Under the pieces are notes generated by a model. It did no database searches and had not been told where the DNA came from. It saw only the letters and a list, made by a program, of their open reading frames with translations. A stretch of DNA of 61,853 nt, filler included, from Coriobacteriales bacterium (GTDB lineage Bacteria; Actinomycetota; Coriobacteriia; Coriobacteriales; UBA8131): the NCBI GenBank assembly GCA_031263105.1. It is 5 parts of 5 records of this genome, joined end to end, with 100 filler letters (N's around TTAATTAATTAA, not from the genome) between each part and the next. Parts side by side here need not be neighbours in the genome. Positions count along the whole stretch, not along the records: positions 1 to 13,256 come from JAISGJ010000107.1; 4 more parts are not named here. One strand, 5' to 3'. Positions 2,372 to 58,532 of this stretch are shown piece after piece (the stretch's first letter is position 1; the number at the start of each line of letters is the position of its first letter). Made by a program: the position numbers and the translations under genes.

Positions 2372-3364
2372 TCAGGGCACGTGCCTGCCAGCCTCAAGCT
2401 GATCGTAGATGAACGACGAGAGATCGACGATCTGCTGTTGGGCGGCCTCGGTGTCCGGGAGATCGTTGCCCATGATGCAGACGAGGTAATCTCCCCAGGG
2501 AGCGAAGACAAGCGCCGTGTCGTTTTCGGTATCTGGAAGCTCACCGGTCTTGTTGGCACTCTGAACCCCGGATGGAAGGCCGCTCGGAATCTTCCAGATA
2601 CGCGTCTGCGCCCGCAACAGGTCAAGCATGTCCTCATCCGCATCCGGAGAGATGCATTCCCCATGATATATGCGGTCAAGAAGCAGGCCACAATCATCGA
2701 CGGAGGTATAGTTCTGCTCGGGTATGGGCACAGGGCGATAGTCCTTCATATCGCGTTGCTGCTCCGTATCGGGATAACCGTGGGAAAGGACGTACTCGTT
2801 GACCTTCTCCATGCCAAGTCCAAAGTCGCCATCGCCTAGAATCGCAACAAGCTCGTTGGAGGACTCATTGTCGCTGACGGTAATCATCTGCTCCAGCAGA
2901 GCGCGTATCTGCGCACTGTCCGCAAGCATGCCCGCATCAATCCGATCGAGAACAGCTGCCATGATGAAGAGCTTTATAAGGCTCGCAGAGACCATCTTGC
3001 CGTTGTTGATGGAGAGGTCCTCGTCGATTGAGATATCCTTGACGTAAACAGCCCACGTCCCCTCCTGCATGGCAAGCCGCTCCTCCAGCAGAGCCTTTAG
3101 CTCGATCAGCTTAGGTTCAGAGGCCGGAGCAGACGGCTGCGCTTCCTCCGTAATCGCTTCCTTGGTCTTCTCGATGCCCTCCAGCACAAAGGCACCAAGA
3201 GGCACCGCAGGAGGGCCTTCGGCCATCTGGGCATTTGTCGCGGCGCATGCCTCCGTAATAATCAGGACAAAGACGAGCGCCACCGAAGCCATGCCACGCA
3301 CAGACAAGAACGGATCATTCGTCCTGCCGCGCCGGAACGTTACACGCCTATGCTCGTCCGTCAT
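2372..3364 (-). CDS. Membrane-anchored serine hydrolase, class A beta-lactamase/PBP fold
   Basis: N-terminal hydrophobic segment; SxxK (SASLIK), SDN and KTG motifs all present. Confidence 0.88.
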   Translation of the reverse strand: MTDEHRRVTFRRGRTNDPFLSVRGMASVALVFVLIITEACAATNAQMAEGPPAVPLGAFVLEGIEKTKEAITEEAQPSAPASEPKLIELKALLEERLAMQEGTWAVYVKDISIDEDLSINNGKMVSASLIKLFIMAAVLDRIDAGMLADSAQIRALLEQMITVSDNESSNELVAILGDGDFGLGMEKVNEYVLSHGYPDTEQQRDMKDYRPVPIPEQNYTSVDDCGLLLDRIYHGECISPDADEDMLDLLRAQTRIWKIPSGLPSGVQSANKTGELPDTENDTALVFAPWGDYLVCIMGNDLPDTEAAQQQIVDLSSFIYDQLEAGRHVP

Positions 3365-3370
3365 ATTCGC

Positions 3371-4810
3371 CTATCGTCCCAAGCTCGCATAGACATAGTC
3401 ACCCAGCGTTTTCGCAACATCGGCGCTGCGCTCCCACTCGCCCTGGGTGCCCAAAAAGGCAACGATGTAGAGTCCTTGGGTGGAACCGCCTGTCGGCCTG
3501 GCGACAATGGCGACCTCGTTATACTTGTCCGTAGTGAATCCGTTGAGGTTCATGAACATATCCGAGCTGGATACCGCCGCACCCAAACCTCTGCGAGCGA
3601 GGGAGTCGTCGAGGAAGAAGTGACTCTCAAGAAACCGCCTGTCCGATTCGTCCGCGTAGACCTCGTTGAGCATGGCGGCCAGATCGAATGCGCTCAGATA
3701 GTTGTCCCGTGTCGTTTCGCCCAATACGATGGGTCGCTCAAGCTGTACGCTCGTGTAGCCGCTCTCATTGCAGACCCGGTTTATCTTATCCAGCCCCAAG
3801 TAATCGATGAGCGTGTTGGTCGCGTTGTTGTCGCTGTAACGGAACATCGTGTCAAGCAGACTGCTGATGTTCATCTGCTCTCCGTCCTGGGCCGCAGTCA
3901 GAACACCGCGACCGCTCACAGAGTGACGGAACGTTATGGTGTCGGAGAACGAGAGGTTGCCAGCCAGACGTTCCTTGTGGAGCGTGTAGTATATGGGGAT
4001 GTCTATCAGGGCTGACGCTTGGTATTGGTTCTGCGCGTTTGCCGACAGGTAGGTCTGTCCATCCGTGAGGTCGAACACCGCGACACCGAGATTTCCGGGA
4101 GCCCCGCTGTTGCTGATAATCGCATCAAGCTCGCCCGGGTCCAGCCGCACCTTGGGCGTTTCCTCAACCGCGACCTCAGGGGCTTCCTTCTCCTCATCCT
4201 CACGAGTGTTTGAACTCTCCTCGTTTTGAGATGCCTCCTGCTCCACAACCTGCCCATTGGTCGAAGGTTGCGCCTGCTGCTGGCTGCCGACAAGGATGCC
4301 GACCGCGACACCTCCGGCAATCAGGAGTACGGCAACCACGCAGATCACAGGAATGAGGAACTTGTTGCGCGGAGGCTTGGCCGCAGGGGCGGAAGCACTT
4401 GCAGGCTCATAGGTCGGCGAGGTGAAGGCGGCGGGAGGCATATACGTCGGAGCTTGAGGCAGAGACGGGCTGGCAGCAGTGGTTCGTGCCTGCTGGGCCG
4501 CAGGAGCGACGGACACGTCTGCCGCCGCTACCGCAAAAGGCTCATCTGTAGGCGTCGTGACCGGCTCGATCGCTGCCACCGCAGCAGACTCAGGTTCGGT
4601 CGTTACCACAGCCGCAGCAGGCTCAGGCTCAGTCGTCGGTGTCGCAGCGAACCTGATCGCTGCCACGGCCGCAGCCAGACCATCCGTCGCCGCCAAGGCC
4701 GACTCGGTCGTTGCCGCCCCGTCTGCATTGTCTGCATTCACTGACTTCTGACAATGGGGGCAGACTCGATGGCTTTCTTCGATGGTATGACCGCAATTCC
4801 TGCAGAACAT
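3371..4810 (-). CDS. Zinc ribbon + low-complexity linker + TM + degenerate beta-lactamase-fold domain
   Basis: CRNC...CPHC N-terminus, Ala/Pro/Thr linker, one TM helix; C-terminal domain keeps SDN but has ASALID and NLNG in place of SxxK and KTG. Confidence 0.82.
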   Translation of the reverse strand: MFCRNCGHTIEESHRVCPHCQKSVNADNADGAATTESALAATDGLAAAVAAIRFAATPTTEPEPAAAVVTTEPESAAVAAIEPVTTPTDEPFAVAAADVSVAPAAQQARTTAASPSLPQAPTYMPPAAFTSPTYEPASASAPAAKPPRNKFLIPVICVVAVLLIAGGVAVGILVGSQQQAQPSTNGQVVEQEASQNEESSNTREDEEKEAPEVAVEETPKVRLDPGELDAIISNSGAPGNLGVAVFDLTDGQTYLSANAQNQYQASALIDIPIYYTLHKERLAGNLSFSDTITFRHSVSGRGVLTAAQDGEQMNISSLLDTMFRYSDNNATNTLIDYLGLDKINRVCNESGYTSVQLERPIVLGETTRDNYLSAFDLAAMLNEVYADESDRRFLESHFFLDDSLARRGLGAAVSSSDMFMNLNGFTTDKYNEVAIVARPTGGSTQGLYIVAFLGTQGEWERSADVAKTLGDYVYASLGR

Positions 4811-4888: not shown

Positions 4889-5575
4889 CTACTTGTTGCT
4901 CAGCATCAGGCTGCGATTGCGATTCCCGATAAGAGTGCGCAACTCCCCTATCCGCTCGGCAACTGTCTCAGAAGGCTGCGTTGTAGCGTTGTCGCGCAAC
5001 CATTGGATAGAGAGCTGGATGTTCTTCTCGATCTCATAGACGGCATCACTCGACCTCGCGGGCGAGGTGCGCAGATCGTCGTAGGCAGCTTCCATCTGTT
5101 TGCGCAGAACCTGATCCTGCAGGCGCGAAAGAAGCGATTGCAGCACGACCGCGTTGCCCTGAAGGAAGTCGACCTGAGCCCGGTGTTGCCGGACAGTCTC
5201 ATCGGTCTTGGAGTTCGCCAGCAGATTGACAGCCGCAAAGAGCACAAACAGGCCGAGAAGGACGAGCTGGATAAGAAATGTCGCCGTCCAGTCCTCCGCC
5301 CTGAGCAGAATGCAGATAACGCCGACGACGAACTCGGCAAAGAAGTACACCGTCGCCCCCACCGAGACGGGCAGGCCGATGACACGACGCTGCTCCGCAT
5401 CGCCTTTTGCAAGGGAAGGCGATGCGACAGCGAGCGCATACGAAAGGTGAACGAAGGCATAGGAGAGCCAGACCGAAACAGGATGCTGGGCTCCACCAAT
5501 CAGGAAGAAACACGCGTTGAACAGGACGACGAACACCGAGTAGACGACGATCCAGAGCACGGCTCTCTTTGCCAT
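4889..5575 (-). CDS. Hypothetical membrane protein (about 4 TM helices plus a helical C-terminus)
   Basis: Four hydrophobic segments in the first 120 aa; RBS and operon position. Confidence 0.8.
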   Translation of the reverse strand: MAKRAVLWIVVYSVFVVLFNACFFLIGGAQHPVSVWLSYAFVHLSYALAVASPSLAKGDAEQRRVIGLPVSVGATVYFFAEFVVGVICILLRAEDWTATFLIQLVLLGLFVLFAAVNLLANSKTDETVRQHRAQVDFLQGNAVVLQSLLSRLQDQVLRKQMEAAYDDLRTSPARSSDAVYEIEKNIQLSIQWLRDNATTQPSETVAERIGELRTLIGNRNRSLMLSNK

Positions 5576-5587
5576 ATCCCGTTCTCC

Positions 5588-6781
5588 TTACAGGTTTTCG
5601 ATGAGTTTCTGCTTGGCAGCAGCAAACTCCTCGTCGGTCACAACACCTGCGTCCAACAGCTGCTTGAGCTTGAGTATCTCGTCCGCCACACCAGGGCCGG
5701 CACTGGGCTGGGGAGCCTGTCCCAACATCGACTGACTGTTTTGCGGATTCGGCTGGGCAGATGCTTCCATACCTCTCGCCGGAACCGGAGCCTCCTGGCG
5801 CTGCACGAAACGCGATGAGGGCATCACAGGCTCCTGTTGCTGCACAGGCTGTGGATTCATGGGAGCGAACATCTGTTGCGCCATGCCGCCGAAGACGCCT
5901 CCGGCCGCCGCGCCCATGCCGATTCCGGCACCCATGGCCGCCATGCCGCCGGCACCGGGGTTGTTTGCCAGATCCTTGAGTATGTCCGCAGACTGCTGAC
6001 GTCCCCAGTCGTCGCCGAGGATGCCCATGACACCCTTGCTGGCAAAGGCGTCCTCAAGCCGCTGACGGTTGGGGTCATCCTCCGGGATATCGATTCCCGA
6101 TATCGCAAACACCACGAGCCTGATTCCGTAGTCGTCGAGAATCTCCTGAAGAATCGGCTGGATGCGATACGCAAGCTCATCCTGCTGTGCCACAATCCCA
6201 AGGATTTCCTGACCGGAGTCCATGATTGCCTTGGCAAGGCTCGATTTCACGTGTTGCTGGAACTCGTTGTCGAAGTAACGGTTGAGTTCGTCCTGCAACG
6301 CAAACGAGATGTTGTTGCCCAACAGCTTCGTCAAAAACTTCGCGCCGTTATCGATCTGCACCTTGTACGAACCACGGGCCCGCACGCTGGTCATGATATG
6401 CATGACCGGGTCGCGCACCTGAATGGGCGAACTGGTGCCCCAGAGTATCTCCATGCTGTGTGCCTTGCGGACGAAGTAAACCACAGCGCTGAAGGTGCTG
6501 ACACCGCCCGTGAAAGCATTGCGCAGACGGCTTATAAAGGGGTAGTTTTCCGTCGAGAGTTGATATGTGCCTTCCTTGAAGGCCTGTTCGATGTTTCCGC
6601 CTTTGATAAAAAGAGTCTCCTCGCCGGGCATGACGACAAGCGTCGAATTGGTATTGAAGTCTTCCTCGGGCTGTCGCCAGATCAGCAGTTCCCCAGGTCC
6701 TGAGTTCTTGATGACGTCAGCCCAGTGCTTCTTTCCTCCCACATACGCCGCTTCATTCGGATTCTTGTCGAATAATCCCAT
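5588..6781 (-). CDS. SPFH/band-7 (YdjI-like) protein with C-terminal SHOCT domain
   Basis: EDFNTNSTLVVMPGE, GTYQLSTENYP and WGTSSPI motifs, Gly/Met-rich AGIGMG tract, terminal LKLKQLLDAGVVTDEEFAAAKQKL (SHOCT). Confidence 0.85.
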   Translation of the reverse strand: MGLFDKNPNEAAYVGGKKHWADVIKNSGPGELLIWRQPEEDFNTNSTLVVMPGEETLFIKGGNIEQAFKEGTYQLSTENYPFISRLRNAFTGGVSTFSAVVYFVRKAHSMEILWGTSSPIQVRDPVMHIMTSVRARGSYKVQIDNGAKFLTKLLGNNISFALQDELNRYFDNEFQQHVKSSLAKAIMDSGQEILGIVAQQDELAYRIQPILQEILDDYGIRLVVFAISGIDIPEDDPNRQRLEDAFASKGVMGILGDDWGRQQSADILKDLANNPGAGGMAAMGAGIGMGAAAGGVFGGMAQQMFAPMNPQPVQQQEPVMPSSRFVQRQEAPVPARGMEASAQPNPQNSQSMLGQAPQPSAGPGVADEILKLKQLLDAGVVTDEEFAAAKQKLIENL

Positions 6782-6813: not shown

Positions 6814-7962
6814 TTATTTTGGCCTGACCTCATGTGTAACGCTGACAGGGATATCGTGTCCCAGCTCTTGCGCTGCCAATATGCGATGCCTGCCGTCCTG
6901 CCCAAATAAATAGCTTTCTCCGGAACGCGTGACCTTCACCATATTCTCCGGGTCAAAGTACTGATTCGCCGTTGCCTGCAGCTCCGGATCGGCCTTTATG
7001 TCGTCCAGCGACTGACCGCTGTCGAGCTTTTCCTTTACATCGGGAATCCTCGAGGCAAGATCGAGGTAATCGTCCTTATTATTGTCATGATGGTTCCAGA
7101 AATCCTCGTCGGGGAGATCGTCCTGGTAGCGCATGCCATATATGTCATTCGGATTGACGGTCGTCTGCTCTGGTGTCTCGAGCTTATCATGCTCGTAGTT
7201 CTCAAGATTATTCATATACTCGTCATAGGGGTCGGCGGATTCATCCCGATGGCTTTCCGTGATGTCGTCACCTGATGAGTCAGTTGTTTGCTCAGGTTCG
7301 ATTGCATCGTGGCCCTCTTCCTCAGCGTAGGGCGTGTCGGTTTGCTCGGTGAACCTGTCGTCGAGCTCTGCAGCATCCTGTTCTGCTTCCTGTTGGATCG
7401 CCGCATACTCGTCCTGAATATCCTGTGGGGTTATGCCAGTATCTTCCACATCGGCTGTGTCCTCTGGCTGCGTATCCTCCACCCTTACGTTTTCCCCCTC
7501 TGCGGAAGCCTCGTCATGCGACACGTCGTAGGACTCGTCGGACTCCATCTCGACCGGCTCGTCGGAAGCTTCGGGCACCTCCTCCGCTTCCGGAGTCTCA
7601 AGCGTCTCAGACGCTTCCTCCGACACGGGAGCCACGTCCTCAGGGATGTCCTGCGACTCGTCTGGGACGCCCTCTTCCGAAACCTCGGGATCCTCCGCCC
7701 CTCCTTCGGGAATGTCCTCGGGGATATCGGTCAAACCTTCGGGTACGGAATCAGCGGAATCCTCGGCATCTACGGGCACCTCATCGACCCCCGTATCCTC
7801 CGGAATGTCGGTCGTGGCATCGTCACCGGCAGCAATCCCCACGTCATCCCCGCCTGCGTCATCACCGAAGTCACTGTCGACATCGCCGCCGACATCCGCA
7901 CTGATATCCGCGCCGACATCGCCGCCGGTGTCCATACTTATGTCGCCGCCGCTTTCATCCAT
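6814..7962 (-). CDS. Highly acidic low-complexity protein with C-terminal ParB/Srx-like domain
   Basis: About 250 aa Asp/Glu-rich N-terminus with recurring DIPED; C-terminus VKV...YLFGQDGRHRILAAQELG..IPV matches the ParB/sulfiredoxin GxxR motif. Confidence 0.75.
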   Translation of the reverse strand: MDESGGDISMDTGGDVGADISADVGGDVDSDFGDDAGGDDVGIAAGDDATTDIPEDTGVDEVPVDAEDSADSVPEGLTDIPEDIPEGGAEDPEVSEEGVPDESQDIPEDVAPVSEEASETLETPEAEEVPEASDEPVEMESDESYDVSHDEASAEGENVRVEDTQPEDTADVEDTGITPQDIQDEYAAIQQEAEQDAAELDDRFTEQTDTPYAEEEGHDAIEPEQTTDSSGDDITESHRDESADPYDEYMNNLENYEHDKLETPEQTTVNPNDIYGMRYQDDLPDEDFWNHHDNNKDDYLDLASRIPDVKEKLDSGQSLDDIKADPELQATANQYFDPENMVKVTRSGESYLFGQDGRHRILAAQELGHDIPVSVTHEVRPK

Positions 7963-7967
7963 GTCCG

Positions 7968-10646
7968 CTACTCCTTTGCCAATGAGTTGTTCACTGTCGC
8001 TTCAGGGAGCCTTAGTTTGGTTCCGTACCGGACTTTACGGAAAAGGTGCACTTTGACGCATGAGAGGAGCGGCCGCCCAAAGGCCTCGTCGTTGAGTTCC
8101 GCTTTCACGAGCGCCGAGATCCTGCCCAACACCCGAACCAAGGGGTCCAACTGGTCGGTCTCCAGCTTGAAGTTCTTCGTGAAGATCCTCCGGGCCACCT
8201 CACTCGCGAGCTCGCGCCGCGCCAGACTGCAACCTTCTGTGCAATAAGGGGTTCTCCTGCACTGGGGATACGGCCGCAGATCCCTCTCTTTGCCTGTCCA
8301 GTATGTCGACTGCCTGCGAATGTCCTCGTCGGAGAGAGTGATGTCAATGGCGTTTTCAAGGCGATAGTCGGGCGTGAGCACCTCCTCGGGCTCCTCCAGC
8401 TTGCCAAAGAACAGGAAGGCCTCGCCGGGACGCAACTTGGCCAGACGCCGAGTCTGCGCCTCATCCATATTCGTACTGGCAGCAATGATCTGTTTGTCCT
8501 CTGCTTCCACCAGCCGGAAGGCCAACTTGATGTCTGTCAGCGCCACGATGTCAGTGGTGACCTTACGGGGCGACTGATCCGCGATTATCAGGCTCACACC
8601 GTAGGAGCGCAACTCCGCCAACATGCGTCGCACGAGTGCTTTGGCGACCGCACTCGGATCGGCCGCACTCTGCCCTGCGCTGGATTCAGATGCGAGCAGC
8701 ACATGCGCTTCCTCGAGCAGTATGACATTGCGCAAGTCTCCCGTACCCATATAATTGCTATTTATATAAGCTAATATTGAGAGCAGGAGCAGTGCTATGA
8801 TGAGCGCCTTCTGCTCTGAATTCTCGATGGCGGTGAGTTCGATGAGCGTCGGTTTGCTGAGCAAATCCTCAATCGGCAGGGAAAAGTAATTATCGAAGAG
8901 ATTGACGAGGCTGGCAAGCCTCACGACGCCGGCCCGCCCGATGTTCCTTGCATCACCCGTGTAGCCAATTGACTCGAAGGTCTCCTCGAAACACTTGACG
9001 AAGTCAGAGATGTTAAAGACCTCCCCCGCATCGTCGCTCGTATAGCTGTTCAGCCAGCGAAAGTTCGAGTAGCATCTGCTGATGCTCTCTTCGAATATCT
9101 TGTCCAGCGGTGTGGTCATGGCGACCCCGGCCTCGAATGCCGTCTTGAGTGTGGACTTGTATGCCTCAAGTCGCACGTTTTTCGGCGGCAGAAAAGGATT
9201 GAACACCAGAGGCGAGATAAAGCTCTTGCCCGGCGTGAACACCTGAAGCTCAGGAATGCTCTGAATCAATGCCCGATACTCGTTCTTGGCCGGCTCGATG
9301 ACAAGGAAAGGTATACCGTACCGCTTCCAAAGCCGATCGAGCAGCCCCACAGAAAACGTCGTCTTGCCCGAACCGGGAGTTCCAGTAATAAGCATGTGCT
9401 TTGTGAGGTCGTGCCTCGAAAAACCTATAGTGTGCTCGACTGCGGAGGACTTGAGTACGCCGACCTCGAGCTCGCTCGCATCAATCAGGTCGTCACGGAA
9501 GGTCTTGCTCGACTTGCTCGATTCGTTCACATTGAGCCCGGCTGAAAGGCGGTCGCTGCCCAAGGGCAGTCGGAAGAACTCGGACGCCTCCCGTGCTGTC
9601 ACGATGGTCGGGAGGCGATAGAACGGCGAGAATCCCTGCTGCGCGTCACGCGGGTTGATGTTGCGCTCGAGGTTGAGCACGACCTCATCCATCGCCCAAG
9701 GCAGAGGAAAGAGGTTCCGCTTGAGTTGAATTTCCCCAGAGGTCAGAGGAACAAGCCCCATCTCATTGGTGACATCGAGTTGCCCTATCATGCGTGTGGC
9801 AATCGTGTGCGCAGCATCGCGCGAGCCATAGACGACGATGTTGAAGGAATAGAGGGCGGCATTCCTGTTGTCCACGTAGTATTGATAGGTCTTGGCAAGA
9901 CGCGCGGCCATGGTGAAGCTCACGCTCCCTATCGTAGTGTCTGCGACCCCTCTGCCCAGAATGTTGAGGTTCTGGGAGGTAGCCTCGATTGCATCCAGTT
10001 CGGCAGCGGTGAACTGGGCGGGGATGAGTTGCAGCGAAAGGGCCGTGTTCGGTCGCTCTATGAGTGTATTGACGATGCGCGCCAAGTCGTTGGCAGTCAC
10101 CGGCAGATCGCTATAGGCAAAACAATAGGGAATGGCCTGATTCTGCAGGTTCTCGATCCGCTCGGTTTTCTTGAGCACGTAGGCTGCGGAATCGTCCAGC
10201 TTTCCCACAGCCTGCATGAGGTCGTCAAGGGGACAGAGGCGATACCCGTAGCGCTCCAACGAGAGCGTGAACGTACAGATATCCAACAGATTGCCCAAGG
10301 CCTGCGTGGCTCTTGTCTCATCGACATCGACGCAGCGCACGATGACGAACAGCCTGATGCGCGCCTGAAAGGGCTGGTTCTCCACGGGTTCAGCGCACCA
10401 TAGCAACTCAAGCGCCACCTCGCGCAACAAGCCGTCGAGGCGATAGGAGATACGGCACTGCTGATGTATCTCCGCAAGGAACCGCGCCATGTCTGCCTTG
10501 TATTCAAGAAGCCAGTCGGTGCCGACCCTACCGCAGTTTCCCAGAATCGAAACATGCGGGACAGACATGACCTCAACGGCCGCGAGCCAAACCGACTCAT
10601 TGCCCTGCAGCAGGGCAGTCGAGACGTAAGGGCGCTCCAGCTTCAT
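7968..10646 (-). CDS. HerA/FtsK/VirB4-like ATPase (DUF87-type)
   Basis: KHMLITGTPGSGKT Walker A, VIEPAKNEY, ILLEEAH Walker B, ELRSYGVSLIIADQSP, LRPGEA; long N-terminal extension. Confidence 0.88.
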   Translation of the reverse strand: MKLERPYVSTALLQGNESVWLAAVEVMSVPHVSILGNCGRVGTDWLLEYKADMARFLAEIHQQCRISYRLDGLLREVALELLWCAEPVENQPFQARIRLFVIVRCVDVDETRATQALGNLLDICTFTLSLERYGYRLCPLDDLMQAVGKLDDSAAYVLKKTERIENLQNQAIPYCFAYSDLPVTANDLARIVNTLIERPNTALSLQLIPAQFTAAELDAIEATSQNLNILGRGVADTTIGSVSFTMAARLAKTYQYYVDNRNAALYSFNIVVYGSRDAAHTIATRMIGQLDVTNEMGLVPLTSGEIQLKRNLFPLPWAMDEVVLNLERNINPRDAQQGFSPFYRLPTIVTAREASEFFRLPLGSDRLSAGLNVNESSKSSKTFRDDLIDASELEVGVLKSSAVEHTIGFSRHDLTKHMLITGTPGSGKTTFSVGLLDRLWKRYGIPFLVIEPAKNEYRALIQSIPELQVFTPGKSFISPLVFNPFLPPKNVRLEAYKSTLKTAFEAGVAMTTPLDKIFEESISRCYSNFRWLNSYTSDDAGEVFNISDFVKCFEETFESIGYTGDARNIGRAGVVRLASLVNLFDNYFSLPIEDLLSKPTLIELTAIENSEQKALIIALLLLSILAYINSNYMGTGDLRNVILLEEAHVLLASESSAGQSAADPSAVAKALVRRMLAELRSYGVSLIIADQSPRKVTTDIVALTDIKLAFRLVEAEDKQIIAASTNMDEAQTRRLAKLRPGEAFLFFGKLEEPEEVLTPDYRLENAIDITLSDEDIRRQSTYWTGKERDLRPYPQCRRTPYCTEGCSLARRELASEVARRIFTKNFKLETDQLDPLVRVLGRISALVKAELNDEAFGRPLLSCVKVHLFRKVRYGTKLRLPEATVNNSLAKE

Positions 10647-11107
10647 GGCTCATCGACCCCACCGTTGGGTTCATGACATCTCATAAGTCTCCCCACGCCT
10701 TTGACGATGCCCGGCAAAAGACCGTAGCGTTCGAGGGAACGTAGCATGTACTCCGAGCAGCTAGGTTCGAACACACAGGCCCTGCGCACATGCCTCGGCG
10801 CAAAACGCTGGTAGATGAGAATGCCCCAGATGACAAGTCGTCTGAGACGCAGCGCCACATAAGCGACGAGCAAAACAGAAAAGAGCAACATGACCTGGGC
10901 GGCATCGAGATAGAACTCGACCCCCACCATGGGAAGGACGACTGCAAGCAAAACGGGCGGCAAGAAAAAATCGAACAGGCAGGCAATCAGCGAGAAGCGC
11001 GGACGAGTTATCCTGTGCAGGGGCGGAGCGCCTTTGACAGGGGTGCTGGGAGGCTCCCAGTCCCTGTTATGGCGCACAGCGTCCGCCGCTGGAATCTTGT
11101 TCATCAT
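10643..11107 (-). CDS. YidD-like (membrane insertion efficiency/haemolytic domain) protein with 2 N-terminal TM helices
   Basis: IYQRFAP...CVFEPSCSEYMLRSLERYG...GVGRLMRC...GGVDEP signature. Confidence 0.85.
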   Translation of the reverse strand: MMNKIPAADAVRHNRDWEPPSTPVKGAPPLHRITRPRFSLIACLFDFFLPPVLLAVVLPMVGVEFYLDAAQVMLLFSVLLVAYVALRLRRLVIWGILIYQRFAPRHVRRACVFEPSCSEYMLRSLERYGLLPGIVKGVGRLMRCHEPNGGVDEP

Positions 11108-11158
11108 CGACCCTTGCCGTTTGACACAAGACGGTCTGCAAAACCGAACAATCTCACA

Positions 11159-12022
11159 TTAGGCCAGCTGCTTCTTTTCTCTGAGTTTCGCAGTCATCGC
11201 CTGAATCTGAGACTCGTTCTCAGGTCGCATGACGCAGACGAAGCTATCGCCGGGAACAGCGAGCATAAAGCTGTAACGGGGAAACTCGATCCAGCGGATA
11301 TCCATACCGAGACAACCAGTCGTATGCTGAAGGTTCTCGACATTGTAGTTAGTGGTAACGCTTGTAACGTCACGGTAGAAGTACTCCTCGGTATGTTCCT
11401 TGATATCCTTGTCCAACAGACTGAAGGTCAGACTATAGAGATAGACCTGATCGGAGCTGAAAAGCAGACAGGACATCTGATAATGGGAGGTTCGGAAGAC
11501 GAAGTCGTCTCCAATTTTAAAGAGAACGCTATCCAGCGCCCAGCCGTCTGTGAATACCGGGTTGATTTCGGACACCTGGTCTACGTCCAGCCCCAACTTG
11601 CTCAATGCCATCTGAAAGATGTTGTACTGCCCGACACGCTCCTTGAGAATGCTGTCGAAGCGCGCATCGCTTATGCGGAAGAGATTCTGCAGGCATCCTC
11701 GACCGTACACAAAGTACTTGATGACATCCTTCTCGGCCTGCGTGCGGCCACGGAGGTTAAAGCCACCGACCATTTTGCTGCCGCCACCGAACTTGCTCAG
11801 AGCGAATCGTCCAATAAAGAAGAGGACGGCCAGTCCGATCAACAGCCCTATCAGGCTCATAATGGCACTGATGATTACCGCGAATATGTTGCCGCCGGAT
11901 GATGAGGAACATGCCGTCAACGCAACCAACAGTGTCAGGCTCCCCGCCAAAGCCAAAAGCTTGATCCCCCTGATGGCGACTGCCTTTGTCTTCTCTCTGT
12001 CTCTGTCTTTGTCTCGCTTCAT
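11159..12022 (-). CDS. Hypothetical membrane (possibly lipo-) protein, first gene of the operon
   Basis: Basic N-terminus, LTAC lipobox-like segment, second TM helix, soluble C-terminal domain; AAGGAG RBS at 12032-12037. Confidence 0.8.
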   Translation of the reverse strand: MKRDKDRDREKTKAVAIRGIKLLALAGSLTLLVALTACSSSSGGNIFAVIISAIMSLIGLLIGLAVLFFIGRFALSKFGGGSKMVGGFNLRGRTQAEKDVIKYFVYGRGCLQNLFRISDARFDSILKERVGQYNIFQMALSKLGLDVDQVSEINPVFTDGWALDSVLFKIGDDFVFRTSHYQMSCLLFSSDQVYLYSLTFSLLDKDIKEHTEEYFYRDVTSVTTNYNVENLQHTTGCLGMDIRWIEFPRYSFMLAVPGDSFVCVMRPENESQIQAMTAKLREKKQLA

Positions 12023-12038
12023 TCCCCATCACTCCTTT

Positions 12039-12244
12039 CCCAGTCCCAAAAGGTGTAGGTTTTGAGAGTGGTCCGTCCGTCCGCTCCTAAATTCCCCGCC
12101 TAAAACCTCCGCATAGTATATCAGCACCTAGACAGGGCGTGCACGTGAATCTGCAAAAAAAGCGCAGTTTCGCGAACCCTGCCGACAGGGGGCAGCAGGG
12201 GCCGCTGCGGACCACTCTCAAAACCTACACCTTTTGGGACTGGG
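12039..12244. promoter_or_regulatory. Putative invertible promoter bounded by perfect 37-bp inverted repeats
   Basis: CCCAGTCCCAAAAGGTGTAGGTTTTGAGAGTGGTCCG at 12039-12075 and its exact reverse complement at 12208-12244; minus-strand TGA-TATACT at 12123-12115 lies inside. Confidence 0.72.
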
Positions 12245-12511
12245 GCAGCGGTTCCGTCTTGGGCATTTCCCCATACGCTGACAGCGGAACTACGAATCTA
12301 TATTCCTTGACGCTATCGACACACAGGTTCATAGCAAGAAAACAGGGCTGGGAATCGTCTGCACCTTGCTCTGCTGGATCTTCGCGTCGGAAATCATTGG
12401 CTTCGTGGAGGGCGTCGCCTCCCTTACAAAGCAGGCAGATGCCAGCGACGGCATATACGTTTAGGAGCAAAAGGCAAAAGCGAAAGACCGGATAAGGGAA
12501 CGAATCTCCGG

Positions 12512-13105
12512 CTACAATTCAGATGGCCTAGGCACACTAAGGATTTCCCAAAGTTGATTGACATCAAAGTCTGAAAGGCCCAGCGCCTGTGCCTGGCTCA
12601 ACGCCTCCTCGTAGGTCGGTGAGGTATTGAATTTCTTTCGCGCAAAATAGTCTTGTTTGATGTACGCAAGGAGATACCAGTAGATACCCTTTGGCTCAAT
12701 CATGTTCGCAGCATTGAGGTACGATTCAATCTCGTCAATCACGGGACGCAGCATCAGGAACGGCTTTTTCCCACCAAGAAGGCTTACCGCCGCGTAGAAA
12801 AAGGCTTCTGAGTTGTCGAAATTCTCCTCCAACGCCTTTTTGAATGCCTCGTTCGCCTTGTCGTAGAGCTTGAGCTTCAAATAGCAGAACGCAACGGAGT
12901 ACCCCAGTTCCGAGTTGTCGGGATTAGATGCCAGTTCGTTGCGGTACACCGATGCGTATTTGCTGACCATCGGAAGAGGCATGGCATACACGCTGTTGAA
13001 GGTCGAAATGACAACCGGATTCTTACAATAGGTACAGATGTTTTGCCCGGTATCCACCTGCGCCCCACAATTCGGACATTTCATATCGACAATCTGATAC
13101 GCCAC
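12512..13105 (-). CDS. Zinc-ribbon + TPR protein
   Basis: CPNCGA...CTYC followed by TPR-like helices (YDKANEAFKKALEENFDNSEAFFY). Confidence 0.82.
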   Translation of the reverse strand: MAYQIVDMKCPNCGAQVDTGQNICTYCKNPVVISTFNSVYAMPLPMVSKYASVYRNELASNPDNSELGYSVAFCYLKLKLYDKANEAFKKALEENFDNSEAFFYAAVSLLGGKKPFLMLRPVIDEIESYLNAANMIEPKGIYWYLLAYIKQDYFARKKFNTSPTYEEALSQAQALGLSDFDVNQLWEILSVPRPSEL

Positions 13106-13256: not shown

Positions 13257-13356
13257 NNNNNNNNNNNNNNNNNNNNNNNNNNNNNNNNNNNNNNNNNNNN
13301 TTAATTAATTAANNNNNNNNNNNNNNNNNNNNNNNNNNNNNNNNNNNNNNNNNNNN
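13257..13356. other. Artificial contig linker
   Basis: N-run/TTAATTAATTAA/N-run of 100 nt; the same linker recurs four times. Confidence 0.98.
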
Positions 13357-15408: not shown

Positions 15409-15959
15409 GTTACCGCTCGCACCCCACTGTCATTGTGAGCGAAGCGCCCGCAAGGAAGGTCCTCACGCTGCGCTCAGGATAAACTCCGCGTGAGAATCCT
15501 TGGACACGCAGTGTCCAACTGGCCCGCTTGAGCGCTGGTGCGTTCCGTGGGCCTGTCGGTTCCATGGGCTCACCCGCTCAGGGGCTCATACGCTGCTTCG
15601 CAGCTTCGCCCGGAAACAGCCCACTGGGCTGTTTCCCAACGCAGCTTCGCCCGGAAACAGCGCACCGCGCTGTTTCCCAGCCCACTGGGCTGTCGCGCCG
15701 TCCTCGCTGAAAACGCGGTGCGTTTTCCGGGCGCTCGAACCCAAGGATTCCTCGGCAGGCTCGGAATGACTGTGGGGCGGTTACTGTTCACACCCCACTG
15801 TCATCCCGAGCCTGCCGAGGGATCTTCGACCGTGCCAGCGGTCGACCGCAGGTCGAGAGGCCCCTGACCTGCCGTTGGACACTGCGTGTCCAAAGATTCC
15901 TCGGCGGAGCTCGGAATGACAGTGGGGTGTGAACAGTAACGTGGGGCGCGGACAGTAGC
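15409..15959. mobile_element. Older MITE copy containing a nested younger copy
   Basis: Left end GTTACCGCTCGCACCCCACTGTCATT; right end GAATGACTGTGGGGCG/CGGACAGTAGC interrupted by the nested copy; degenerate flanks CTCTCTCA and CTCCTCA. Confidence 0.75.
15780..15940. mobile_element. MITE copy (161 bp) nested in the right TIR of another copy
   Basis: TIRs GTTACTGTTCACACCCCACTGTCAT ... ATGACAGTGGGGTGTGAACAGTAAC; TSD GTGGGGCG at 15772-15779 and 15941-15948. Confidence 0.9.
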
Positions 15960-20483: not shown

Positions 20484-20583
20484 NNNNNNNNNNNNNNNNN
20501 NNNNNNNNNNNNNNNNNNNNNNNNNNNTTAATTAATTAANNNNNNNNNNNNNNNNNNNNNNNNNNNNNNNNNNNNNNNNNNNN
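20484..20583. other. Artificial contig linker
   Basis: N-run/TTAATTAATTAA/N-run. Confidence 0.98.
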
Positions 20584-25541: not shown

Positions 25542-25606
25542 AAGACCTCATCCTTTCTTTCCATACCAACGCTGTGTCACTTCCCTTAGGAGGCGCCGAT
25601 TGCATC

Positions 25607-25768
25607 GTTACTGTCCACACCCCACTGTCATTCCGAGCTCCGCCGAGGAATCCTTGGACACGCAGTGTCCAACGGCAGGTCAGGGGGCCTCTCGACCTGC
25701 GGTCGACCGCTGGCGCGGCCGAAGATCCCTCGGCAGGCTCGGGATGACAGGGGGGTGTGGACAGTAAC
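25607..25768. mobile_element. MITE copy (162 bp) with 8-bp TSD
   Basis: TIRs GTTACTGTCCACACCCC ... GGGGTGTGGACAGTAAC; ATTGCATC at 25599-25606 and 25769-25776; nearly identical, inverted, to 15780-15940. Confidence 0.9.
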
Positions 25769-25798
25769 ATTGCATCAGCTTCGAATCGGCACTTCCCT

Positions 25799-33644: not shown

Positions 33645-33988
33645 GATACACCCCCACTGTCATGATACGCCCCGCTGTCATCCCGAGCCCCCACTGTCGC
33701 CCCGACCCCCCACTGTCGCCCCGAGCCCCCACTGTCGCCCCGAGCCCCCACTGTCATCCCGAGCCCCCACTGTCATCCCGAGCCTGTCGAGGGATCTTCG
33801 ACCGCGCCAGCGGTCGAGCGTGGCCAGAGGGCGCCTCGGCCCGCGCTCGGCTGCTTTGCGCTCCGTGGGCCTGTCGGCCCGTCCTCGCTGAAAACGCGGT
33901 GCGTTTTCCGGGCGCTCGGGTCCCGTGGGCCTGTCGGCCCGTCCTCGCTGAAAACGCGGTGCGTTTTCCGGGCGCTCGGACCCAAGGA
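33645..33988. mobile_element. MITE copy with internal tandem amplifications, cut by the contig end
   Basis: About 6 tandem 19-bp units of the TIR core CTGTC(AT/GC)CCCGAGCCCCCA and a 60-bp-period duplication (33862-33919 and 33922-33979) of a module shared with other copies. Confidence 0.75.
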
Positions 33989-34088
33989 NNNNNNNNNNNN
34001 NNNNNNNNNNNNNNNNNNNNNNNNNNNNNNNNTTAATTAATTAANNNNNNNNNNNNNNNNNNNNNNNNNNNNNNNNNNNNNNNNNNNN
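33989..34088. other. Artificial contig linker
   Basis: N-run/TTAATTAATTAA/N-run. Confidence 0.98.
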
Positions 34089-55880: not shown

Positions 55881-55980
55881 NNNNNNNNNNNNNNNNNNNN
55901 NNNNNNNNNNNNNNNNNNNNNNNNTTAATTAATTAANNNNNNNNNNNNNNNNNNNNNNNNNNNNNNNNNNNNNNNNNNNN
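55881..55980. other. Artificial contig linker
   Basis: N-run/TTAATTAATTAA/N-run. Confidence 0.98.
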
Positions 55981-58355: not shown

Positions 58356-58512
58356 TGTTCACACCCCCACTGTCATCCCGAGCCTGCCGAGGGATCCTCG
58401 GCTGCGAAGCAGCCGACCGCAGGTCGCAGGATCTTCTGACCGCAGTCGACCGCTTGCGCGGCCGAGGATCCCTCGGCAGGCTCGGGATGACAGTGGGGGT
58501 GTGAACAGTAAC
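58356..58512. mobile_element. MITE copy lacking the outermost left bases
   Basis: TGTTCACACCCCCACTGTCATCCCGAGCCTGCCGAGGGATC ... GATCCCTCGGCAGGCTCGGGATGACAGTGGGGGTGTGAACAGTAAC; no TSD visible. Confidence 0.8.
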
Positions 58513-58532
58513 CCTCTCCCTATCTCAATGCC

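Follow-up and report, generated by a model that had tools for sequence, protein, structure and literature searches.

The window analysed here, 61.8 kb in all, consists of MAG contigs chained via N44-TTAATTAATTAA-N44 spacers at 13257-13356, 20484-20583, 33989-34088 and 55881-55980, and the locus described below sits in the first contig piece (1-13256). The G+C content of this piece is 57.6%, compared to 64-68% in the other pieces. It probably belongs to the same genome as these, because a MITE-like repeat is common to both. Copies of this repeat family, which has terminal inverted repeats of ~32-51 nt, were found at 1110-1412, 15409-15940, 25601-25774, 33868-33988 and 58356-58514, on four of the five contig pieces, and one of them overlaps the annotated start of the open reading frame of a recombinase, P0040. 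Beside this recombinase, a PIN-domain ORF follows a small upstream ORF on the minus strand (369-770 and 748-1005) in a toxin-antitoxin-like layout. The other end of the contig (13092-13256) is high-copy in metagenome runs (depth 358-609 versus ~20, with many loose ends) and therefore probably accounts for the contig break; no tRNA was found when this stretch was checked for one.

The operon under study lies on the minus strand of the first piece. A Zn-ribbon/TPR gene (12512..13105) precedes P0001 (11159..12022), which encodes a 287-aa membrane protein with a lipobox-like LTAC motif and no Pfam family (35 homologues). Further downstream are the genes of a 154-aa YidD-like domain protein (10643..11107; PF01809, E=2.3e-17; TIGR00278, 64.9 bits at a cut-off of 40), an 892-aa HerA/FtsK-like P-loop ATPase (7968..10646; PF01935, E=1.6e-7), a 382-aa protein with no family match (6814..7962), a 397-aa SPFH/Band-7 protein with a SHOCT tail (5588..6781; PF13421, E=1.9e-32; PF09851, E=6.9e-8) and a 228-aa membrane protein (4889..5575), which also comes after the SPFH gene in the relatives L005 and L007. 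When the operon proteins were searched with PADLOC, only the ATPase gave matches (mad8, 1.7e-18, and HerA models), and every NCBIfam match of the ATPase was far under its cut-off. These defence-model matches are weak, and a defence role for the operon is speculation. Downstream of the operon and on the same strand, two class-A beta-lactamase-fold proteins are encoded (2372-3364 and 3371-4810), one of them with an N-terminal zinc ribbon. We do not call them resistance genes, because they reach 41-58 bits against an NCBIfam cut-off of 200.

Between the TPR gene and P0001 lies a unit of 206 nt that is bounded by a perfect inverted repeat. As the original prediction had stated, its two arms (12039..12075 and 12208..12244) are 37 nt long and 100% complementary, with 132 nt between them (12076..12207). 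The 37-mer occurs in only two places in the 61.8-kb window, and none of 100 shuffles gave two matches. The predicted quasi-palindrome was seen in both arms, built about an asymmetric centre and reaching out to ~15 nt per side, and we read the left arm as a recombinase crossover site and the right arm as its partner. The 20-nt core of the left arm, CCAAAAGGT-GT-AGGTTTTGA, is at 12046-12065, with 12055-12056 as the putative central dinucleotide GT; the core of the right arm is at 12218-12237, with the central AC (plus strand) at 12227-12228. Exchange at the centres of these sites would turn 12057-12226. Inspection of the flanks, CACTCCTTT and GCAGCGGTT, confirmed that they carry no target duplication.

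On the minus strand, in the direction of the operon, the order of elements is right arm, GC-rich hairpin, a run of seven T (12155..12161), TGATATACT (12123-12115), left arm, AAGGAG and ATG. The left arm ends 1 nt from the ribosome-binding site AAGGAG (12032..12037) of the first downstream gene, which is in the place predicted for it, 9 nt before the ATG (12022-12020). An extended -10 element facing the operon had been proposed, and its sequence, TGaTATACT, is indeed present on the minus strand at 12115..12123; however, a two-hexamer promoter scan of 11900-12700 found no promoter-like site, and no good -35 hexamer was found for this element, so that its function as a promoter remains a prediction from the sequence. 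Similarly, the T7 run was predicted to end transcription together with the hairpin. The run is there, ~32-38 nt upstream of the -10 element, but a terminator scan found no terminator-like site inside the unit, the run included. An UP-like A/T tract is one possible reading of the run, and a weak tail of a terminator is another.

We also searched for the unit and its parts elsewhere. Exact searches returned no copy of the 37-mer from genome_contigs and none of the 23-mer core from metagenome_contigs. With 12000-12300 as the blastn query, neither plasmids nor phages returned a match, and Rfam gave a single chance-level match (17.7 bits, cut-off 50). No remnant of a recombinase was detectable in 12000-12530 (best E 0.09), and an 81-aa ORF in the 267-nt spacer that separates the stop codon of the TPR gene from the right arm (12245..12511) had no Pfam match.

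The surroundings of the unit were compared with nine distant loci from metagenome_contigs and with one rumen MAG locus added by the HerA query. In genome_contigs no relative was found with P0001 alone, and alignment A1 found none in genome_contigs or viral_contigs. The near relatives P0005-P0008 are 67-98% identical. In all seven metagenome loci with both genes (L003-L009) the TPR gene, 51-66% identical, is directly upstream of the P0001 homologue. The gap between these two genes is 31-77 nt in the relatives, compared to 489 nt in the window, and therefore the 206-nt unit and the further 267 nt form an insert inside a conserved operon. The prediction that the switch controls the HerA-SPFH operon agrees with an arm that adjoins the ribosome-binding site of the first downstream gene, but the position is inside the operon and not at its head, as the TPR gene is co-operonic in seven of seven relatives. 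No perfect inverted repeat of at least 14 nt, no site of the family described below and no P0040 homologue was found in the distant loci (L001-L010). Imperfect inverted repeats in L005 and L006 were considered as switch arms and rejected, being chance matches inside the TPR gene.

The recombinase P0040 (1383..2087, plus strand) is encoded on the same contig, ~10 kb from the switch. It is a small serine recombinase with a Resolvase domain (E=1.3e-25) and a helix-turn-helix, and a candidate invertase; its true start is probably M26 at 1458. Its YVRVSS serine motif is present, as is the DRLGR motif, and its reading frame has no internal stop. In a PDB search, Sin/Bin3 and the gamma-delta/Tn3 resolvases scored highest (E from 1e-24 to 1e-19), whereas the matches to the 'DNA-invertase' chains 4m6f and 3uj3 were weaker (E 1.5e-12 and 5e-12). 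A family site was sought near the 3′ end of the gene (2087) and none was found, the sites in the window being ~10 kb off. The genome thus holds a matching recombinase on the contig of the switch, with homologues beside sites that have the same core, and P0040 is likely the enzyme that acts on this switch.

These homologues came to light when the genome and viral collections were scanned with an 18-mer taken from the arm core. This gave 80 loci, most of them single matches in Flavobacteriaceae. In seven of the 80 loci, all from Clostridia (L018, L025, L026, L044, L055, L065 and L078), a second, inverted site with 2-3 mismatches is found 138-200 nt away, and in L018, L026, L044 and L065 consensus-like promoters could be read between the sites from the printed sequences. 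A P0040 homologue (54-60% identity) ends at or next to the site in five loci (L018, L025, L048, L065 and L078).

One genome, a termite-gut Oscillospiraceae MAG of 2.2 Mb (G001), contains 14 matches to a 20-mer, compared to 0 for the reversed control. They are spread over eight contigs: four carry pairs, and the other four carry single sites, 86-119 nt past the start of the contig. The starts of contigs C10, C14, C11 and C32 (L066, L079, L123 and L124) overlap pairwise by 65 identical bases, which lie inside the switch segment. The genes behind the switches on these contigs encode paralogous RCC1-repeat surface proteins, and this RCC1-repeat set is a multi-gene phase-variable family. The idea that such cassettes spread as mobile promoter units was rejected, since the copies in G001 precede paralogous RCC1-repeat genes, which fits plain segmental duplication.

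The association between recombinase and inverted repeat was then counted in 201 sampled genomes of the order of G001. At a threshold of E <=1e-40, P0040 homologues were present in 50 of them. Sixty-five of the 66 matches were taken as loci, and one that is 21 nt from a contig start was left out. An inverted repeat was defined by 16-nt arms with at most two mismatches that start within 160 nt of the end of the recombinase gene, at loci with at least 250 nt downstream. With this definition, a repeat directly follows the recombinase gene in 33 of 58 loci, among them L143, whose GC-rich pair lacks the motif. For upstream control regions the count is 4 of 29. In the window, by contrast, the inverton does not lie within ~160 nt of the 3′ end of the recombinase gene. 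In seven of the 65 loci (L096, L099, L101, L119, L126, L148 and L158) the contig ends less than 250 nt past the recombinase gene or inside it. Breaks of this kind would be expected of switches that disrupt assembly.

We derived the consensus cTnTCAAAArGT-GT-ACyTTTTGAnAg from 27 sites, which come from 15 of the first 30 loci. In it, two inverted half-sites surround an asymmetric GT centre; the central GT is present in 22 of the 27 sites. The arm core of the window fits this consensus, with three differences, and differs by one base from TCAAAAGGTGTAGGTTTTGA. Written as CCAAAAGGTGTAGGTTTTGA, it has one mismatch to the GTAGG variant common to L018, L026, L044, L055, L065 and L078. The outer bases of the half-sites vary between loci (GTCAAAA, ATCAAAA, CCCAAAA, CTCAAAA) but agree among the four half-sites of each switch, which hints that each recombinase has its own, co-evolved site variant. 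Between the inner segment in the window and those of the other family members, no similarity was seen. The targets behind the family switches include surface proteins with SLH, Flg_new and VWA domains as well as NERD, PP2C, ECF-sigma, SHOCT, SLOG and DUF4760 proteins. A literature search of main texts with 12-15-nt pieces of the motif returned only unrelated primer matches.

Inversion within this family is seen in a pair of paralogues in one genome, L137 and L157. As far as the first site, the recombinase gene included, the two loci match at 92% identity in the same direction. Over 588-719, which is exactly the stretch from site to site, they match at 86% identity in reverse, and past it they are unrelated. 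A TTGAAA-N17-TATAAT promoter points at the downstream gene in L157 and at the recombinase in L137. Six pairs of family loci have homologous inner segments; only L137/L157 is flipped, and the other five are in the same direction.

For the switch in the window itself, the opposite orientation was sought in homologous DNA, as had been suggested, and it was found in a related strain. We used Logan contigs (k=31, which cannot bridge the 37-nt arms) of three runs: X1, a termite-gut metagenome that may be the source sample, X2, a second sample of the same study that holds part of the stretch, and X3, which covered four of 30 bins, none of them near the switch. Record 9 of X2 (1872 nt, depth 6.5), from a strain ~95% identical to that of the window, aligns to 10600-11977 on the plus strand, to 12092-12158 on the minus strand and to 12216-12287 on the plus strand. 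The inner piece with the -10 element is thus turned relative to both flanks, which are on the same strand. Compared to a simple flip, the record has ~88 and 10 extra nt, and the left arm is unaligned. This is a difference between strains, seen at low depth, and does not by itself prove switching within a population.

The contigs of X1 (records 1-3) stop inside the arms, as a 37-nt repeat predicts, and since k=31 contigs break there they are uninformative on orientation. Their depth is 9.6 for the inner piece, compared to 21.7 and 19.1 for the flanks. In addition, a contig of depth 16.3 joins 12075 to 12202. Neither the half depth nor this join is predicted by inversion; they may reflect another allele of the inner segment or a form with a deletion.

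Arms that fit the family consensus, a recombinase on the same contig, the reversed piece in X2 and the flipped paralogues together indicate an invertible element served by a serine invertase; on these four counts the predicted switch is supported. We consider it probable that the unit of 206 nt is an inverton, a DNA switch turned by site-specific recombination, that belongs to the P0040-type family of serine recombinases, carries an outward promoter and was inserted in an operon. Each arm would hold a crossover site, with inverted half-sites (C/T)C(C/T)CAAAA... around the asymmetric central GT, to which a dimer of a P0040-family serine recombinase, likely P0040 itself, would bind. The arms would then pair in a synapse, where cleavage at the central dinucleotide, a rotation of 180 degrees and religation would turn the ~170 nt between the centres; the exact crossover position and the activity of the promoter are both predicted from the sequence. 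In the assembled orientation, transcription from the extended -10 promoter would cross the left arm, reach the ribosome-binding site and continue over the genes of the membrane protein P0001, the YidD-like protein, the HerA-like ATPase, the 382-aa protein of no known family, the SPFH protein and the further membrane protein. This state is probably ON, because the only promoter-like element faces the operon. After a flip, the promoter would read antisense into the Zn-ribbon/TPR gene, and the operon would be OFF or low. Since this ON/OFF assignment follows from the extended -10 element, it is conditional on that element being a promoter. The switch was inserted between the first and the second gene of the operon, whose genes are contiguous in other genomes.

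A real inverton could also have an output other than a promoter: its orientation might decide if read-through from a promoter of the TPR gene is blocked, on the T7 side, or passes, or if the transcript contains both arms and forms a 37-bp stem next to the ribosome-binding site. As the TPR gene is first in the operon in seven of seven relatives, an upstream promoter probably exists, and the segment has no two-hexamer promoter. A transcript across both arms folds at -124.6 kcal/mol (z = -8), as one with any perfect repeat would. Nevertheless, we regard this reading as unlikely: the segment lacks a terminator-like site, its extended -10 element faces the operon, and consensus-like promoters lie inside the family segments of L018, L026, L044, L065 and L157. 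Alternatively, the unit might be a relic that now serves as a fixed promoter or 5′ leader, in which case the difference in X2 would be an old fixed inversion between strains. The distance of 10 kb to the recombinase, the MITE-like repeat over its annotated start and the orientation evidence, which is between strains only, fit a relic. The two arms, however, have 100% identity across all 37 nt, whereas the flanks in the ~95% identical strain have diverged; this fits ongoing exchange or a recent origin, and P0040 retains both sequence motifs and an uninterrupted reading frame. A relic therefore appears quite improbable to us.

The absence of a target duplication, the presence of only two arms in the window and of no exact copies in the collections searched, and the match of the arms to sites beside recombinase genes make it very unlikely that the unit is a MITE or transposon remnant with terminal inverted repeats unrelated to inversion, even though it is an insert relative to other genomes, the genome has another MITE-like family and related cassettes are multi-copy in G001. 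An assembly artefact, either a fold-back or a chimeric join, might be suspected 1 kb from a contig end that is itself a high-copy repeat. We judge it extremely improbable, as records 1-3 of X1, independent contigs from what may be the source sample, contain the two joins between flank and arm as well as the inner piece, without a single difference, and the related strain in X2 has the same parts.

We also compared the inverton of the P0040 family with known systems. The master invertase Mpi of Bacteroides fragilis is a serine recombinase that acts on promoter invertons distant from its own gene. The switch described here resembles this system in that the inverton is apart from the recombinase gene and in that a genome can hold many loci (eight contigs in G001). 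However, P0040 reaches 25.7 bits with the Mpi-family model NCBIfam PRK13413, against a cut-off of 272, and the phylum is a different one.

Another well-known case is the Hin-hix switch of Salmonella, and the Din family comprises Hin, Gin, Cin, Pin and Min. Both the Din systems and the P0040 family have a small serine recombinase with a C-terminal helix-turn-helix. In contrast to the Din systems, the segment of the P0040 family is 130-170 bp long and has no recombinase gene inside. Din-family sites are of the form 12-2-12, as in hixL, TTCTTGAAAACC AA GGTTTTTGATAA (PMC3241671, Table 3). Judged by the sites in that table, both families have inverted A-tract half-sites with a 2-bp asymmetric centre, and an inverted pair of sites flanks a promoter; however, the centre in the P0040 family is GT and not AA or GA, and the A-tract is one base further out. 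The likeness of the arms to hix/gix sites that had been proposed thus holds for the half-site architecture but not for the centre or for the position of the A-tract.

A close likeness in layout is described in a 2026 paper (PMC13418256): in the Oscillospiraceae Flavonifractor plautii and Oscillibacter, csrA-tldR loci are preceded by a 'hin' recombinase with a promoter inversion of ~120 bp. This module is from the same bacterial family as the genomes nearest to the switch described here, and in it, as at most relatives of P0040, the recombinase gene is directly followed by the promoter segment, which in that report is inverted between related loci. In comparison with the module as described there, the switch in the window is 10 kb from the recombinase and inside an operon, its promoter element is a housekeeping-type extended -10 and not of FliA type, and its targets are membrane, HerA-like and SPFH genes instead of csrA-tldR or flagellin. 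The P0040-type recombinases and the 'hin' of PMC13418256 are presumably one family. Gut Clostridia also have short promoter invertons next to a recombinase gene in 'inverton group 139' (PMC11892184), which was detected by reads and is paired with a tyrosine 'invertase group 35'; the recombinases there are of the tyrosine type, whereas those described here are of the serine type. In addition, a preprint (10.1101/2025.10.07.681051) links small serine recombinases to defence islands, which inversion may regulate. The mechanism is textbook, and mechanism and module are already known. What is new is the target operon, the placement within the operon and away from the recombinase, and the explicit site consensus.

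It is possible, though we put it forward only tentatively, that the P0040-family switches are natural orthogonal pairs of invertase and site, and that the switch in the window was transplanted away from its enzyme, making the HerA-like/SPFH system phase-variable at a distance of 10 kb. If this is true, the HerA-like/SPFH membrane system would possibly be one of defence or envelope stress. For the annotation of phase variation in gut Clostridia, a site of ~24 bp together with a recombinase family present in 50 of 201 genomes is useful, and the P0040-type recombinases are a possible source of small invertase-site pairs. For the organism itself, the finding places a conserved operon of Zn-ribbon/TPR, membrane, YidD-like, HerA-like and SPFH genes under on/off control in one lineage. 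Such control marks the products of the operon as costly or exposed, like surface structures, phage receptors or defence systems, and it is thereby a handle on the function of the operon.
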